This document shows positions 346 to 18,901 of a DNA stretch of 18,901 nucleotides, in pieces; the first letter of the stretch is position 1, and each line of letters opens with the position of its first letter. The position numbers and the translations under genes are program-made. Location: assembly GCA_964619725.1 (NCBI GenBank), contig CAZUFC010000040.1, forward strand, positions 42,616 through 61,516. Direction: 5' to 3'. The notes under the pieces were generated by a model. The model did no database searches and had not been told where the DNA came from. It worked only from the letters and a program-made list of their open reading frames with translations. This stretch comes from an uncultured bacterium. GTDB lineage: Bacteria; CSSED10-310; CAZUFC01.

Positions 346-1983
346 ATGAAGATGTATTGTTTTCAATGTCAGGAAACAGGTAAAAACGGCTGCCTCAGCA
401 AAGGAGCTTGCGGCAAAGATGCGGAAACATCAGCTCTGATGGACCTTTTGATTTATGTGTCCAAGGGAATTTCTGTTCTGCAGAACGGTTTAAACAATGC
501 TCCAAAATCGGAAATGGAAACCGGACGATTTTTGACCGAATCTCTTTTCATAACCATAACTAACGCTAATTTTGATAAAAGCAGGATAATCGAATTTATT
601 AAGTCCGGAATTGAATTAAAGAATAAATTAATCGAACAGTATGATGAAGCCGCCGTGATGTGTTTGCCTGATTCGGCGCTATGGCATTCAGACAACGTCA
701 GCGATTTTTATAAGAAAGCATCGGTAATCGGCATAAAATCGACAACGGACGAAGATATCCGTTCATTGCGTGAAACTTTGATTTACGGATTAAAGGGAAT
801 AGCAGCCTATGCCCATCATGCTTCTGTTTTGGGTTATGAAAAAAGAAGTATTTATCAATTTATGATCGATGCGCTCGATGCTACCGTAAAAAACCTCAGT
901 CAAAAAGAGTTAACGGAAATGGTAATAAAGGCGGGACATACGGCTGTGGATACAATGTCGCTGCTTGATAAGGCACATACGACCGTTTATGGGCATCCTG
1001 AAATATCAAAGGTCAACGTCGGGGTGAGAAATCGACCTGGAATACTCATTTCCGGTCATGATATGAAGGATATGGAAGAATTGCTGAAACAAACGGAAAA
1101 TGCCGGAGTGGACGTGTACACACATGGAGAAATGCTCCCGGCGCATTATTATCCTTCCTTCAAAAAGTATGACCACTTCGCAGGCAATTACGGCGGTTCC
1201 TGGTGGAAACAAAACAAAGAATTCGAATCCTTTAACGGTCCTATCCTTATGACTACGAATTGTATCATACCTGTTCGGGAATCCTATCGAGAACGGATTT
1301 TTACTGCTGGAGCGGCGGGATATCCGGGAGTCAAGCATATTCCTGACAGAATAAACGGTCATGAAAAGGATTTTTCTGGATTGATTGAATTGGCCCGAAA
1401 ATGTGATCCTCCGCAGGAATTGGAGACAGGAGAAATAGTCGGGGGATTCGCTCATAACCAGCTCACGGCACTTGCCGATAAAATAGCAGACGCCGTCAAA
1501 TCAGGCGCTGTTAAACGTTTCATCGTGATGGCAGGATGCGACGGACGTCATAATTCCAGACAATACTATACCGACGTTGCCCGTGAACTTCCTCCAGATT
1601 CTGTCATCCTGACTGCAGGATGCGCAAAATATCGATACAACAAACTGAACCTCGGCGATATAAACGGCATACCCAGGGTTCTGGATGCAGGTCAATGCAA
1701 CGATTCTTATTCCCTGGCAGTGATTGCCCTGAAGTTAAAGGAAATTCTTGGTGCAGCCGACGTCAACGAACTCCCCATATCCTTCGATGTCGCATGGTAT
1801 GAACAAAAAGCCGTCGCCGTCCTCCTCGCCCTGCTGGCTCTCGGTTTCAAAAATATCCGGCTCGGTCCGACGTTGCCGGCATTCCTTTCACCAAACGTCG
1901 CTCAATTCCTTGTCGAAAACTTCGCCGTCAAATCGATCGATAATCCAAAAAATGACGTCGATCAAATGATGAAAGGAAAATAA
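346..1983 (+). CDS. hcp: Hybrid cluster protein (prismane / hydroxylamine reductase, NO reductase), class I
   Basis: 545 aa. N-terminal C-x2-C-x7-C-x5-C ([18 protein letters not shown]) and hybrid-cluster motifs ISGHD, YTHGEM, TTNC, GCDG, GCAKY, DAGQCND, WYEQKA. RBS AGGAGG at 332-337. Confidence 0.97.
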
Positions 1984-10500: not shown

Positions 10501-10778
10501 TCAGGCATTCCTCCGACAGTCATAATAGCAGGAATCGCGATTTTTTTAAATTACTTTTAATTTTATTAGGTCATAATTTTGAATTGTCTTCAAAAAGGAA
10601 AGGTTTCAATTCGATGTTTAATATTGTTCGAAAAGGCGTATTTCGAGGATACAGTTTTCGCAGCCTTGAATAATTGATAAGCTTTTAAAATCTGATAAAG
10701 ACAAAATACATCCGCTATTAGTTTTTTTGTTCCGATTGCGATACCGAACCGAACGGCCTGATTATCGACAGCGGCTGC

Positions 10779-10804
10779 TTTGCGACGGGCTCTGACCCCT
10801 TTCC
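10779..10804 (-). repeat. REP-like element copy downstream of rdrB
   Basis: tttgcgacgggctctgacccctttcc; near-identical to 7301-7326. Confidence 0.8.
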
Positions 10805-10885
10805 TGACACTTTTCCCAACAGCCTGATCATCCCTAAGACGGAGGAGATGATGAACGCTTGAATTGAATAGATCACTGATTTTAT

Positions 10886-13822
10886 TCAAAAACCGAACAG
10901 GTCGTCTATTCTTCGTAAAAGTTTCTGTTCGCGTCTTTTCCGGTTGATGTAGAGGCGCTCCCGATTTAAACCGGTTACGGGGAGAAAATCAATATTTTTA
11001 ACAACTTCGAATTCCGGTTCTATCTCTTCTTTTTTATGAAAAGCGCCTTCATGCAAAAATGTTTTTTCAATACTGTTATTACGCAGATAATCAATCCATT
11101 TGCGAACATTTTCCTTGTGATAGCCCTTTTTTTCCGCTGCTGCAGCCAGAAGAGCGTATTCCCGTTTGAGGCTGGTGTTGAAGATTCCAGGATTATCCGT
11201 ATTAACCACCACCTGTGTTTTTCGATTGTTTTTTTCATCCAGCCCATGAGCGTTAAACGAAAAAACGGGATGCTCCGTCAATTCGCCGAACCCGCCGATA
11301 AGATAATTTGACGAAGGACAGACCTCAATCGTCACCTCTCGATCCGCTATTTCCTGCAGGACTTTTTCTCTTATTTCATGAAAGCATTTGACCCAATCGA
11401 ATTCGAATTCTTCCCATTTCACTTTTTTCCTGGCTTCGATGTAGTATTCGACATTAAACTGGTAACGCCAAAGGTATTTGATAGCGGCAAGGGGAACGAG
11501 TCCCTCGAAAAGGTCATTCAGTCCGACTGTGGTAGCTCGCCATTCCATGTTTTCCGGAAGGGTTCTCAAGTCGCGTACGGCAGAACATAGAAACCAGTTT
11601 TTGGATTTGCCTGCGTCGCACAGTTCCAGGTTCACACTGTCGCCTTGCGACAAAAGGCAATGCCCTGTTTTAACGCACGAACGAAAGTTGCCCTGCATGG
11701 ATGCCGGACATATTCGGTTTAGGGAATATCCCTTGTGGACATCCATTGGCGAACCGCCGCAAACTAAACCTTCAGGATGAGTTCCCGCATTCCAACCCAG
11801 GTTCTCCAGAATACTGAAAAATTCCACAGGGTCCATCCATCTCATTTTCCAGGCAGCCGCCAGCAGATCGTTCAGTCCCTCAGTAGTCGGCGGAACAGTT
11901 TCATTCCAGTAAAGTTCATTAAACTCCCTGGCGATATAATTTTCCAGCCGTTTTATTTCCTCATCGCAATGGGAGCAGAAACGAAGCATGTGATGTATCC
12001 ATACCCAATTATCCAGTCGTTCTTCACGGGGCATTTGAGGATCAGTCCCTGCGGTTTTGATCCATTTTTCGGGATCGATGCCCAGGACTATGCCGTGGCC
12101 GATTCTGTCACCTGGTCTTAAATCGAGAAAATGCAACGCTTCATAAACCGCCCGCAGTCCGGAAATAGGATGATGAAACGATTCGCCGACGTGATAGGTG
12201 GCTTTCAAAGGTTCGATATCGCAACGATGAACCGTATCCGTGAATCTCCGGAATGCAAGAGGCAACGAACGGCGCAGATATCGAAAGGCAGGCGCGAATA
12301 TTTCCGGGGATGCATCCCGCTCATGACGCGCCGCATCAATCGCCAAAATTGCAGCAGCGGCGTCAGGGTCTTCTGCTCGATACTTCTCCAGGTTCAGCGC
12401 AATTTTTTTTATCTCCCGACGAAGCCGCCGGTGACGAATAACCGGCGTCCATACCGTCTGCCATTCCTCCGTCTTTTTTGGGGGTCGAGTTTGTGGAGGC
12501 ATCTTGATAAGATGAGCAACCAGTCCGAAATCTCTTCCCAACCGGTAATCCTCAGAAAACAAAGTATGATAATAAGCCTCGATCCACGAGCTTAGCGTTT
12601 CCCGTTCTGGCGTTACCCTGCCCTCAACTCTCTGTCGCCGATCATTAGTCACGGATTGTAAGATGTAATGCTGACGACTTCGGCTCCAGTTAGGCGATAA
12701 TTTTCTGGCCGGCGAATCATACCAGTCCAGAAAATTCAAAAATCCCAACCGTTTAGAATGCTGAGTCACAGCCTGATGGAAGATATTCTGAATCGCCAGA
12801 TAAGCGAAAAGAACCGGACGATACCAATGAGGCAGTTCTTTTCCATGTCTTCGCAATGTGATGAAAGCTTTAATTAAAAATTGACGCTCCTGTAGATAAA
12901 AATTGCCTGCTCCGGCTTCAGGAGAAAGAAATGCCGGCGAAAAATTTACCCCAAAAGAATACTGCCGGTGTAAATTATCGGCGATAAACATTCCAGCGGA
13001 TATGGCCAGATCATCAGTTTCTCCTGCCGCTGAGAGAACCTCAAAATGAGACTTGACCATTATCGCCCGTTGATACTTTTCAAGAATCGAATAAATGCAT
13101 GAACTGCGGAATCCCTGAAAGAGAGCGATCACAACCCCCAGCATGTGGCGCATAATGTGAATATCTTTTAACCTCTGATAAATTAGAGCGTTCAGTTGTC
13201 CCTCATCCAGTCTCCTTTTCCACTCTCTTAATTTCTTAATACTTCGTAAAGCCCTGGATTGGGTCACTAACTCGCTCCACAAATCAAGCGTAGAAGGAAC
13301 CCCGCCAAGATGAACATGGCATTCCACCATTTCCGCACGGAGAGGAAATTTCAAATATTGAGCATCCGTACGAAGATAAGGAGGCCAATCAATGAACGCA
13401 CCCTCGCTCCGCCCGTCCCTCATATTCGCAATATGCTCGGCGACACGCCAACAGGCCAATTGATCCGGTACGACCAGTAACCCAGCATCCATTAATTCAA
13501 GCATCATATCATGTTTCACGAAAGGACAATGCCCGTTCAATTTTAAATAACGCCGCGAAAGAGTAGACAATGCCAGTCCCAGAACTCCGATCGAACTGTG
13601 TCGCTCGGAAATCTCCAAAACATTCTCTAGCAGATATTCGATTTGCTCAAGCGGCATATTGGGACGCCCCAGCCCCACTCCATTCATTATTCCACGTAAT
13701 CGTTCTTTCTGACGTTTTTCATAATCGCCTGGACGCAAACTGATCAGCAATTCGTCCAATCTTAGAAAGGCTTGGCTCGATAAACATTTCAGCCAGAATT
13801 CTATGTCGGTGGAGGGTTTCAT
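10886..13822 (-). CDS. rdrB: Large adenosine-deaminase-family metallohydrolase, RADAR effector RdrB-like
   Basis: 978 aa. HxH (ECHVHLGG, H169/H171), TYHVGE (H544/E547), GDRIGHG (H576), IEVCPSSN and VNTDNPG (D876). It lies directly downstream of a large P-loop ATPase. Confidence 0.85.
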   Translation of the reverse strand: MKPSTDIEFWLKCLSSQAFLRLDELLISLRPGDYEKRQKERLRGIMNGVGLGRPNMPLEQIEYLLENVLEISERHSSIGVLGLALSTLSRRYLKLNGHCPFVKHDMMLELMDAGLLVVPDQLACWRVAEHIANMRDGRSEGAFIDWPPYLRTDAQYLKFPLRAEMVECHVHLGGVPSTLDLWSELVTQSRALRSIKKLREWKRRLDEGQLNALIYQRLKDIHIMRHMLGVVIALFQGFRSSCIYSILEKYQRAIMVKSHFEVLSAAGETDDLAISAGMFIADNLHRQYSFGVNFSPAFLSPEAGAGNFYLQERQFLIKAFITLRRHGKELPHWYRPVLFAYLAIQNIFHQAVTQHSKRLGFLNFLDWYDSPARKLSPNWSRSRQHYILQSVTNDRRQRVEGRVTPERETLSSWIEAYYHTLFSEDYRLGRDFGLVAHLIKMPPQTRPPKKTEEWQTVWTPVIRHRRLRREIKKIALNLEKYRAEDPDAAAAILAIDAARHERDASPEIFAPAFRYLRRSLPLAFRRFTDTVHRCDIEPLKATYHVGESFHHPISGLRAVYEALHFLDLRPGDRIGHGIVLGIDPEKWIKTAGTDPQMPREERLDNWVWIHHMLRFCSHCDEEIKRLENYIAREFNELYWNETVPPTTEGLNDLLAAAWKMRWMDPVEFFSILENLGWNAGTHPEGLVCGGSPMDVHKGYSLNRICPASMQGNFRSCVKTGHCLLSQGDSVNLELCDAGKSKNWFLCSAVRDLRTLPENMEWRATTVGLNDLFEGLVPLAAIKYLWRYQFNVEYYIEARKKVKWEEFEFDWVKCFHEIREKVLQEIADREVTIEVCPSSNYLIGGFGELTEHPVFSFNAHGLDEKNNRKTQVVVNTDNPGIFNTSLKREYALLAAAAEKKGYHKENVRKWIDYLRNNSIEKTFLHEGAFHKKEEIEPEFEVVKNIDFLPVTGLNRERLYINRKRREQKLLRRIDDLFGF

Positions 13823-16800: not shown

Positions 16801-17925
16801 GGGAATACTTTCCTTTATTTTAAGAAAAATTCTATCGAAATCCATATCAATCATATCGGGAAGATAGACTCGCATATGGGGCGGCAACAATTTTTTCAGA
16901 TATTGGTGTGTTAGGTCTTCGATGAAAGAATCTTCGGAAAGAAAATGGTGAGATGTCTCCGATTTCAAATTGATAAGCCCCCGACGTAACTGGCGACTAA
17001 ATGAATTTTTTAGTGTTTGCGAATACATTTCTATATCGCCTGTCACCATTATCAGCATTTTATTGGACGTTAAATAGCGTCTCAGTGATTCCAGGACTTC
17101 CTCGCCGCGATTAAAAGACATATCGACATCATCAATTGCGATAACGGCCATTTCCTTCCCCACCAAATCAAGGTATACGTCGATAAACTCCCATAAAGCC
17201 CTTTCCAGGTTATAACCCGAACGAAATTGCATGGTTTCTTCAAGCATGCCCTCCGTATCATACTCGTTAAATGCTTTTTCCAGTCTGTTTATATTCAATG
17301 TAACAGGCAGTTGCTTTATTACCTTCGCCAGAGCCGTCCTGAATTTATCGGACTTTTCCTTCATAACATCCCGGCCCAATTGGCAGATTTTTTTATTCAG
17401 ACATTGCTGTGCTCTGTAATTAAGATCAGCGAATATAGTTGAGACAATATTATCTTTTTTCTGCATCATTGCAGGCTCGACAAGACCACAAATACTTATT
17501 TTACCGGATATTTCATCCAACTTGCTTTTCTCGGAAGCAATTCTTTTTTCGGAATTGATTTCTGTGCCCTCTCCTTCCAATTTAACGAGGCTTTCAGAAT
17601 AGTTTTTTCTATAATCCAGTTCATCCTTTTGATCCTTATCATCAAGCAACCTGATCAAACTATGCAAAAATGAGGTTTTTCCTGCACCCCTTCTTCCCAA
17701 TATCCCAAGATTCAAGTGTCGACGCCTCAGTTTCCATACCGTTTCTTCATCATCGAAGGTTTTATTTTGTTTTTCAAAACTTAATTGACTCAGCGCCTTT
17801 TCGATATGTTCGATCGCTTGTTTTATCTGGTGAATATATATTTGAGATTCGGCATCGATGGGTTGAGCATCTTTTAAGTTCGATATGTCTATGATGATGT
17901 CGTTTTTTCGTGTTAAATCGGTCAT
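13840..17925 (-). CDS. rdrA: Large P-loop (KAP/AAA+-like) ATPase, RADAR sensor RdrA-like, with long C-terminal region
   Basis: 1361 aa. Walker A GRRGAGKT (aa 77-84), Walker B VIAIDDVD (D265/D266), LESLRRYL and YLKKLLP. It ends 17 nt before the deaminase gene. RBS AAGGAG at 17936-17941. Confidence 0.82.
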   Translation of the reverse strand: MTDLTRKNDIIIDISNLKDAQPIDAESQIYIHQIKQAIEHIEKALSQLSFEKQNKTFDDEETVWKLRRRHLNLGILGRRGAGKTSFLHSLIRLLDDKDQKDELDYRKNYSESLVKLEGEGTEINSEKRIASEKSKLDEISGKISICGLVEPAMMQKKDNIVSTIFADLNYRAQQCLNKKICQLGRDVMKEKSDKFRTALAKVIKQLPVTLNINRLEKAFNEYDTEGMLEETMQFRSGYNLERALWEFIDVYLDLVGKEMAVIAIDDVDMSFNRGEEVLESLRRYLTSNKMLIMVTGDIEMYSQTLKNSFSRQLRRGLINLKSETSHHFLSEDSFIEDLTHQYLKKLLPPHMRVYLPDMIDMDFDRIFLKIKESIPRNERRAIDQTQENTGNSEMKNVIAFKKDYFNSVLRDCLRIEKACDDFFYADLEFLFNIYRFLIPRDVRRFIYFCLLETERVVEIKNKNKSGNYNGKVQHQKELKRKNNLLIDMFHNWRGNLELNQLSPQELKALIKEDRVGLFILNFLLTNEMSDESMLRLDARTDSVNVNLILAFFRFAVEANLDGRSVPGIISLGLDLCVPGYYLMSLPSDERSRQARHLQLNLKDSQRQLYARLVPWVARKANIKPGVVKLCDRPGALENLLDINDPSPRAGWRKILGNPERRNLTRYRKEMRTRCNEFLTPKRDYWADRSCFKWSSEYLPGVFQKDEITDLFILNEEEAKLTRLVNEKIPKIPEMATSPDFFDRLAGALPRLLLNCWTTSEGGQTYLNCWNGLSIVKEVIRLAANIYEKITDITQIRKKDLFKIIYRKLKTELEPTAGAWAPFEMGMAPPSPPPPKEKDEYDELGEYWKKITEEIDAASDPADFYPLFKNNKAGLGLAWHKFPDPEWIDDDKKIATNPGVGFSKDNCITIQDRNDLESCRKQAWDQTLKWLGAAVTEWVAYWGRHWYSKNRCKPNFNQIQKTIETFLEDIGDEESYVGQWSGAGDIIQRWIYHFLNSVLIETLEYKSTFDTDDCTCRNDGEKPAEEEPEEKKEEENQAKSKKKEKGRSVERPSLQRSSVNKKPPRAANESEGAYHPLYQNLKYLQSAIKTKSLWKWSDTFLALASFPTIGCFLHWGGPLDDDMEIRKILKKHSDQGEFENVNATVYRKDGNNKFACFMIAAGEDSGKRTHVKSIRINKDFRIRQWNKIIEHINGDLKKALNLALLVCFGSLPLISLDPLDRLDGGRILLDDESSIVTIDECEKKDATISKKVHSLYYPLELMGLSWCGLDVRYSEVSNDRQSEAIRDIEQRRKALIAMLNCLVADIKPYRDAEKYLNHLAMAVKGSIDDKILKTKNGSDSSQDVDTNKTEAKRSCQPKEKTE

Positions 17926-17942
17926 TTTCTTTCCGCTCCTTG

Positions 17943-18809
17943 CTAATCTCGCTTATAGGCCAGACGGCTGGCTCTGGCCGCCCCGATTAAATCCAGCTTG
18001 CTTTCTCCCATGGGCTGATCATAATCATCCAAAGTATGGAACCTGACGGTTAAGCCATTCTGAAGTTCCAACTCATCCATGATGTCCCAATACAACTTCT
18101 GCCAATCGCGTGCTTTGACCTGGAGATTCCGTAGTTTTTCATCGAATTTTTCTCCCTCTTTCGGGGCTAAAAGTTCATGCACTCCATGAGGTTTCATTAC
18201 CAGCGGATGTAAGCCTAACTCTGCGCAAACCATGCTGTAGAAGTCATGAATCCATTCTGTTATTTCAGCGATCAATGCAAATCTGCTTTCGCTGGAATCT
18301 ATTAGTTTGTTTTTCTCAAAGGATTCATGGGAGCAATCGATCAATTTCCATATTTTTTTGAGTTTTGATTTATCCAGCAAATCCTCAATTTCTATTTTTC
18401 TTGTTGGATTGCCCGTTTTCAATATTTCTCTAGTCTTCTCCCAGGACTTTTCGACCAATTCAAATAATTGTAATACTTCTTTTACCGCTTCAATGGACTC
18501 TTTATATTTTTCAGTGCCGCTCAATTCCTTTTTAATTTTGCTGCATTTTTGTTTCCTCAGTTTACTTTCAACTTCGTAAGTAAAATTATACGCATAAACT
18601 TTGGTAAATCCTTTGAATAGTTCATCCCTATTTCCAACTTCCAGCACCATTGACTGGTCTTGAAGGACTCGGCTCTTTATTTTTGTTAATATGTCACTCA
18701 AGCATTCATAATTACTTTCTCCCAGCCTTTTTTTTACTTTTTCAGACTCGAAATACAGACTCTTATTCATCACATCGACCAGTATTTCTTTTAAATCAGT
18801 TCGATTCAA
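17943..18809 (-). CDS. Hypothetical soluble, probably alpha-helical protein; first gene of the RADAR-like operon
   Basis: 288-aa ORF in AT-rich DNA, ending 17 nt before rdrA on the same strand. K/E-rich with no hydrophobic segment. The start is uncertain (TTG 18809, or GTG/ATG about 12-13 codons downstream). An in-frame stop about 14 codons upstream shows the gene is complete in the window. Confidence 0.8.
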   Translation of the reverse strand: MNRTDLKEILVDVMNKSLYFESEKVKKRLGESNYECLSDILTKIKSRVLQDQSMVLEVGNRDELFKGFTKVYAYNFTYEVESKLRKQKCSKIKKELSGTEKYKESIEAVKEVLQLFELVEKSWEKTREILKTGNPTRKIEIEDLLDKSKLKKIWKLIDCSHESFEKNKLIDSSESRFALIAEITEWIHDFYSMVCAELGLHPLVMKPHGVHELLAPKEGEKFDEKLRNLQVKARDWQKLYWDIMDELELQNGLTVRFHTLDDYDQPMGESKLDLIGAARASRLAYKRD

Positions 18810-18901
18810 AATTTTCTCGATACTTGTTTTCGGCGCTTTTTTCGTATTTCAGACTTCGTTAAGGCAAAATTTAAAGTCATTTAAATTAAATTAGTTGAGC
18901 A

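Follow-up and report, generated by a model that had tools for sequence, protein, structure and literature searches.

What is the short gene that lies directly upstream of an rdrA-like gene in an uncultured bacterium, and what does it have to do with the RADAR-type genes that follow it? The window, by which we mean the whole stretch of 18,901 nucleotides (nt) that was analyzed, corresponds to positions 42616-61516 of contig C40 in a genome of 344 contigs, and the gene in question lies near its right-hand end. The original prediction took the 288-residue product (ORF288) to be a candidate new accessory subunit of RADAR, soluble and therefore unlike the membrane proteins that accompany the described forms of that system. 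In the available text of PMC7699616 and PMC11676413, RADAR occurs as rdrAB alone, in association with Csx27 or in association with SLATT proteins. The available text of PMC9994260 calls RADAR a two-protein system, in which RdrA heptamers are docked on an RdrB dodecamer and ATP is converted to ITP.

The rdrA and rdrB genes and their surroundings

The two genes that follow ORF288 lie in tandem on one strand, 17 nt apart (Table 1). Their products score far below the NCBIfam equivalog cut-offs for RADAR: RdrA reaches 113.5 bits against NF041743, for which the cut-off is 600, and RdrB reaches 181.3 bits against NF041744, for which the cut-off is 800. When the PDB was searched, a profile of the long RdrA family found 8hr7 as its best match (E 3.3e-24), with 8fnt close behind, and RdrB found 8fnv (E 5.1e-24), with 8fnw close behind. 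We take these four entries, which the search labeled 'Archaeal ATPase' or 'Adenosine deaminase', to be RADAR structures.

The likeness to RADAR lies in the tandem arrangement of a P-loop ATPase and a giant adenosine deaminase, and in the conservation of the Walker and zinc-ligand motifs. The long RdrA has eight relatives of 1188-1382 amino acids (aa), with 29-33% identity, and the Walker A and DDVD motifs are invariant in the nine aligned sequences. In RdrB, the HxH motif, two further histidines and the aspartate of the TD motif (H169, H171, H544, H576 and D876) are likewise invariant in nine sequences, RdrB having a set of relatives that corresponds to that of RdrA. Besides the low scores, a difference from RADAR is size: the RdrA proteins of this group have about 1200-1380 aa, whereas the solved chains have 907-947. 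Judged by sequence, then, the two products are distant relatives of the RADAR proteins, not equivalogs. A TDNP variant in RdrB was considered as a sign of decay and dropped, since three of nine relatives also have TDNP.

Table 1. Positions of the features discussed; those given without a contig name refer to the window
Feature	Position	Strand	Basis or remark
Hydroxylamine reductase (hybrid-cluster protein)	346..1983	(+)	
Subtilisin-like serine protease, 763 aa	2724..5015	(+)	
AAA_14 + DUF4143 ATPase, 435 aa	9193..10500	(-)	PADLOC candidate PDC-S01, end to end, E 3.6e-137
99-aa ORF	10590..10889	(-)	overlaps rdrB stop; no family match
RdrB-like adenosine deaminase, 978 aa	10886..13822	(-)	NF041744 E 3.6e-53; PF00962 59.8 bits
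Long RdrA-like ATPase, 1361 aa	13840..17925	(-)	PADLOC RdrA E 2.1e-18; NF041743 E 9.9e-33
Shine-Dalgarno AAGGAG of rdrA	17936..17941	(-)	read from sequence
ORF288	17943..18809	(-)	288 aa, TTG start; ORF list and shuffle control
Conserved tail domain, ORF288 residues ~172-285	17955..18296	(-)	two long helices, then motif; phmmer, alignments, AF2
LDDYDQPMGE, most conserved stretch, ORF288 residues 260-269	18003..18032	(-)	alignment, 11 sequences
Target-site duplication AAATA, 5 bp	18845..18849	(-)	matches AAATA at C105:29719-29723, before the element's left end
MITE-like repeat, right-hand 52 nt	18850..18901	(-)	contig and window end inside the element; blastn copies
MITE-like repeat, reference full copy	C77:17643-17884		blastn query C77:17640-17888
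KaiC-like 5' piece, 1236 aa	C105:26036-29746		ends within 32 nt of contig end; KaiC domains, no tail

Several other features of the window deserve brief mention. The PDC-S01-type ATPase just downstream of rdrB suggests a small defense island, and the hydroxylamine reductase and the serine protease farther out are ordinary flanks. Residues 53-92 of the 99-aa ORF match short stretches on contigs C182, C16, C163 and C250, and this ORF is probably another repeat rather than a gene.

The reading frame upstream of rdrA

The frame of ORF288 is open for 301 codons, from 18848 down to a TAG stop at 17943-17945. When these 959 nt were shuffled 2000 times, the longest open run was 190 codons, so that 301 was never attained. 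The observations on which the original prediction was built have stood up well. The stop codon is followed directly by the ribosome binding site of rdrA and then by its ATG at 17925, with a spacer of 17 nt between the two genes. A terminator scan found no terminator-like site at this junction, and the signal in the promoter and terminator scans was at the level of shuffled sequence. ORF288 is AT-rich like rdrA, with a GC content of 0.384 compared to 0.392 for rdrA, 0.465 for rdrB and 0.471 for the genome. The product is predicted to be soluble and without a membrane segment, the highest 19-residue Kyte-Doolittle mean being 0.93 and the GRAVY value -0.60.

The lack of a recognizable motif was also borne out, in that the Pfam, NCBIfam and PHROG libraries contain no family for ORF288. 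A PADLOC match to a type II methyltransferase was marginal (E 0.0044, 14 bits) and was taken as chance. Among the PADLOC and Pfam models for RADAR accessories, Csx27 and SLATT included, none matched, in keeping with the view that ORF288 is unrelated to the described membrane accessories. When 5.8 billion proteins were searched by words with ORF288, the query itself was the sole match, and a comparison of ORF288 with 60 relatives gave no match below E 0.01. In a scan of genome contigs, a 469-aa ORF of Cellulophaga baltica matched ORF288 weakly; there is no large ATPase near it, and the match was judged to be chance.

A tail shared with double-KaiC ATPases

ORF288 does have homologs, which were recovered with phmmer among 1.84 billion cluster representatives. 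Ten proteins besides ORF288 itself matched at E <=0.001, with E values from 2.8e-14 to 5e-4. Seven of the ten are double-KaiC proteins of 1059-1450 aa that align with ORF288 solely at their extreme C-terminus; all seven contain PF06745 (KaiC) above the Pfam cut-off, and the family alignment shows two P-loops. In the best match, residues 172-281 of ORF288 align with residues 942-1041 of the 1059-aa protein P0013 at 47% identity.

The shared segment is characterized by the motif W..Y..IMD.LE.Q.G..R.H.LDDYDQPMGE, which is present in ORF288 and is preceded by a helix and a gap of variable size. Ten columns of the alignment, including L260, D261, Y263 and P266, are invariant in the 11 sequences. 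The remainder of ORF288, residues 1-171, matched nothing in any homolog, and the corresponding stretch spans roughly 80-400 residues, depending on the family member; this fits a variable linker without proving one. By the Pfam search ORF288 has no KaiC domain, and in this genome the two P-loop domains and the tail are not on one polypeptide.

Are there natural proteins that consist of the tail alone? Three of the ten matches are short. P0019 starts within the second KaiC domain, and the cluster of P0018 (72 aa) also contains the 1049-aa protein P0023, so that both were set aside as fragments. The third, P0022, has 237 aa and may be either a genuine tail-only protein or one more fragment.

From the 11-sequence alignment, AF2 predicted helices at residues ~173-197 and ~224-249 with pLDDT 78-88, while the conserved motif that follows received only ~48-55; without the alignment, the model of ORF288 had a pLDDT of 37.6. 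In such a model, confident helices together with a conserved motif of low pLDDT are the pattern of a segment predicted to fold on a partner. Foldseek, which the original prediction had named as a check, found no match to the tail model in the PDB, and a profile of the tail gave only noise-level matches to PDB sequences. The ESM Atlas held no usable lead for ORF288 and placed P0013 in generic KaiC/RAD55 clusters only.

The probable 5' half of the gene and the element that separates it

If the homologs of ORF288 are the ends of much longer proteins, where is the rest of the protein in this genome? A search of the 344 contigs with the KaiC-like relative P0014 gave two matches, to different parts of the query. 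Residues 132-859 of P0014 match a 1236-aa ORF on contig C105 (46% identity, E 1.2e-169), and residues 953-1056 match ORF288. In the C105 piece, two KaiC/RecA-type P-loop domains follow an N-terminal region and are themselves followed by about 140 residues of linker; PF06745 scores above its cut-off in this piece. Its GC content of 0.373 resembles that of ORF288 (0.384) and rdrA (0.392) rather than the genome value of 0.471, which speaks for the pieces belonging together. By tblastn, the KaiC-like gene, ORF288, rdrA and rdrB are each present in single copy in this genome. The genes upstream of the kaiC-like piece encode ThiI, fructose-bisphosphatase and a DUF523/DUF1722 protein, so that the kaiC-like gene marks the start of the system. 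In the translation of the C105 piece, a region with the motif ILFE...YWY occurs twice, at residues ~140-175 and ~385-430; the N-terminal module seems to be duplicated, which would account for the extra size of the protein.

Both pieces run up to the same repeated element. Contig C40, and with it the window, ends 92 nt upstream of ORF288, inside a 242-nt repeat without a long ORF, whose limits and terminal inverted repeats were established by aligning its copies and scanning for motifs. A blastn search of the genome found eight full copies, namely the reference copy on C77 and others on C8, C18, C113, C185, C218 (two) and C271, along with eight partial copies, at least seven of which are at contig ends, including those of C40 and C105. 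The repeat is thus a main cause of the breaks in this assembly. A 5-bp duplication is present in all seven full copies for which both flanks are visible. Multiple non-coding copies, inverted termini and a short target duplication are all features of MITEs, and the repeat is called MITE-like from these features of its own; no parent transposase was found. Rfam contains no match for it either, and its predicted RNA fold is no better than that of shuffled sequence (z -1.12).

Both C105 and C40 terminate in 55 nt that are identical to the C77 copy, each to a different end of it and in opposite sense. C105 carries the left end of the element and C40 the right end, in matching orientations and both flanked by AAATA. 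Three orphan left ends were found in the motif scan, and each pairs one-to-one with an orphan right end by its 5-mer (C89 with C244, C105 with C40 and C307 with C142), although A/T-rich target 5-mers of such low complexity make a chance match of AAATA commoner than 1 in 1024. The stop codon of the C105 ORF lies 21-23 nt inside the element, and the TGA that closes the frame above ORF288 is formed by the last two bases of the element and the first base of AAATA. When the element and one copy of the duplication were removed in a script, the two pieces joined into one open frame, 1529 codons long and closed by the stop codon of ORF288. From the target duplication, the orientation of the ends, the reading frame and the copy number, we infer that C105 and C40 adjoin. 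The insertion looks recent, considering that both pieces are still open and that the 55-nt ends are identical to the C77 copy.

Logan contigs from four runs of one study stop inside the repeat, where the summed depth is 264 compared to 7.5 in the gene. The joined form was absent from these contigs, as was an uninterrupted allele; rare variants drop out of such contigs, and so the result shows that the interrupted form is present and no more.

The kaiC-like gene beside rdrA and rdrB in relatives

The full-length, tail-bearing double-KaiC family has eight members of 1049-1450 aa. Seven of them share a contig with a relative of the long RdrA, of RdrB or of both (Table 2), as judged from locus tags at two loci and from equal contig size and source at the other five. 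Gene order and spacing in the relatives are likewise read from locus tags and contig sizes, not from DNA; by this measure the tags are consecutive in GY835 for all three genes and in GY847 for the KaiC-like protein and RdrA. The contig of the eighth member, P0016, is just 5194 nt long. In the GY847 record, one locus tag lies between RdrA and RdrB, the latter being 769 aa long with 73% coverage; the extra tag may represent a split rdrB or a fourth gene.

Table 2. RADAR-type proteins listed on the contigs of seven full-length KaiC-like relatives
Contig (nt)	KaiC-like	RdrA	RdrB
12184	P0014 GY835_05235	P0005 GY835_05230	P0026 GY835_05225
13377	P0015 GY847_32140	P0003 GY847_32135	P0031 GY847_32125
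53326	P0017	P0006	not listed
21441	P0021	P0009	not listed
46147	P0013	not listed	P0028
56411	P0023	not listed	P0033
85396	P0020	not listed	P0034

Other collections yielded no further loci. Searches of metagenome and viral contigs with the tail alignment and with the KaiC alignment recovered no relative's locus, a tblastn search of plasmids with P0013 gave only a weak P-loop match, and the tail profile matched nothing at E <=1e-5 in 400 other genomes.

Since the kaiC-like gene stands whole beside the long RdrA and RdrB in relatives, these genomic associations indicate a divergent RADAR-type clade in which it is the conserved third gene. What, then, becomes of the proposed accessory subunit? The evolutionary tie to rdrAB that the original prediction envisaged is upheld, in that homologs do accompany rdrA. 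These homologs are the C-termini of whole KaiC-like ATPases, and ORF288 is not the stand-alone gene that it was taken to be but the 3' piece of a split one. It is the entire KaiC-like ATPase, not the 288-aa fragment, that constitutes the accessory component.

Alternative explanations

Our preferred explanation, with a probability of roughly 85%, is that the 242-nt MITE-like element split a kaiC-like gene of about 1529 codons, ORF288 being its 3' end. Could the two pieces form a working pair? ORF288 would then be translated from its own start to give a tail-only adaptor that acts in trans with a tail-less KaiC-like ATPase and RdrAB, either after the split or independently of it, and it would in effect be a small soluble accessory subunit. 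Several facts are consistent with such a gene fission: both pieces are intact open frames, ORF288 retains every invariant residue of the tail and remains tightly joined to rdrA, and the short protein P0022 may be another stand-alone tail. However, the TTG start of ORF288 has no Shine-Dalgarno sequence, whereas rdrA and the kaiC-like gene each have one. This absence is weak evidence, because rdrB is also without a clear Shine-Dalgarno. Also against a working fission are the fact that, without the element, the frame continues into the piece upstream, and the perfect identity of the repeat ends with the C77 copy, which suggests an event so recent that there has been no time for decay. In addition, the other two short tail-bearing matches are visible fragments of long proteins. 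Considering all of this, we regard a working fission as unlikely.

A different possibility is that C105 and C40 are not neighbors, with ORF288 being the remnant of another, lost kaiC-like copy and the C105 gene belonging to another locus. Indeed, no read or contig spans the gap, and the same repeat is present at several contig ends. Yet each gene is single-copy, the two pieces match separate, complementary parts of P0014, C40 alone among the orphan ends of the motif scan has an AAATA that matches C105, and the reading phase is kept across the join; we regard this possibility as very improbable. We find it harder still to believe that ORF288 is an unrelated orphan gene with a chance likeness to KaiC tails. 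The word-based search that returned the query alone and the silence of the family libraries would be expected of an orphan, but phmmer matches that reach E 2.8e-14, with 47% identity over ~110 residues and a common invariant motif, would not, and the KaiC-like proteins that match are neighbors of relatives of this very RdrA.

A possible role for the KaiC-like protein

The split-gene reading implies the following history. In the ancestral locus, an intact kaiC-like gene would have stood directly before rdrA and rdrB. A MITE-like element would then have inserted in the stretch that encodes the linker, leaving the 5' piece on what is now C105 and the 3' piece, ORF288, on C40, and the insertion would uncouple the tail from the ATPase in this genome.

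How might the intact protein act? For the 288-aa product the original prediction had proposed a phage sensor, an assembly factor or an inhibitor of the deaminase as candidate roles. For the KaiC-like ATPase, we infer that the KaiC-like protein is a putative ring ATPase that would act with or upstream of RdrA and RdrB. The tail, carried on a linker of variable length, is a putative docking element for RdrA, for RdrB or for the KaiC ring itself; this suggestion comes from the strong conservation of the tail, the variability of the linker and the disorder predicted for the tail when alone. A more ambitious proposal, to which we would give even odds, is a three-component 'KaiC-RADAR' in which the long RdrA and RdrB have as their obligate partner a giant double-KaiC ring ATPase, with its conserved tail at the end of a flexible linker. 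The ATPase might load, gate or sense, and the natural fission described here, which encodes the tail alone before rdrA, may yield a product that can still dock in trans.

Relation to known systems and significance

KaiC and its relatives are double-domain ATPases of the KaiC/RecA superfamily, represented in Pfam by PF06745, and hexamers of the circadian KaiC are found in the PDB. The RADAR-linked family belongs with them: the 5' piece and all full-length relatives contain PF06745 above the cut-off, in one to three Pfam stretches per protein, and a PDB search with the family profile matches KaiC and RecA. It is a distant branch, however, with scores well below the NCBIfam cut-offs for KaiC. It differs further in having an extra N-terminal region of 300-560 residues, in the linker of about 80-400 residues and the tail, which has no match among solved structures, and in being tied to rdrAB rather than to kaiAB. 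The contrast with the described RADAR accessories is equally plain, since the extra gene here encodes a soluble double-KaiC ATPase of more than 1000 aa and not a small membrane protein such as the Csx27-type RdrC or the SLATT-type RdrD.

A full-text literature search found no paper that joins KaiC with RdrA and RdrB or with RADAR phage defense, and none that joins a KaiC-like protein, an adenosine deaminase and anti-phage activity. In the main text of PMC9994260, neither 'KaiC' nor 'accessory' appears. A KaiC-linked RADAR variant is thus found in no paper searched, while the 288-aa gene that led to it is itself an ordinary fragment.

The case carries a warning for annotation: what looks like an 'orphan' gene at the end of a contig may be the distal half of a longer gene into which a repeat has inserted, with the same repeat also breaking the assembly. 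The conserved tail on its flexible linker offers a concrete handle on how RdrA is switched on. If a KaiC-type ATPase of more than 1000 aa is a constant neighbor of the long RdrA and RdrB, this clade would add a second motor to RADAR.
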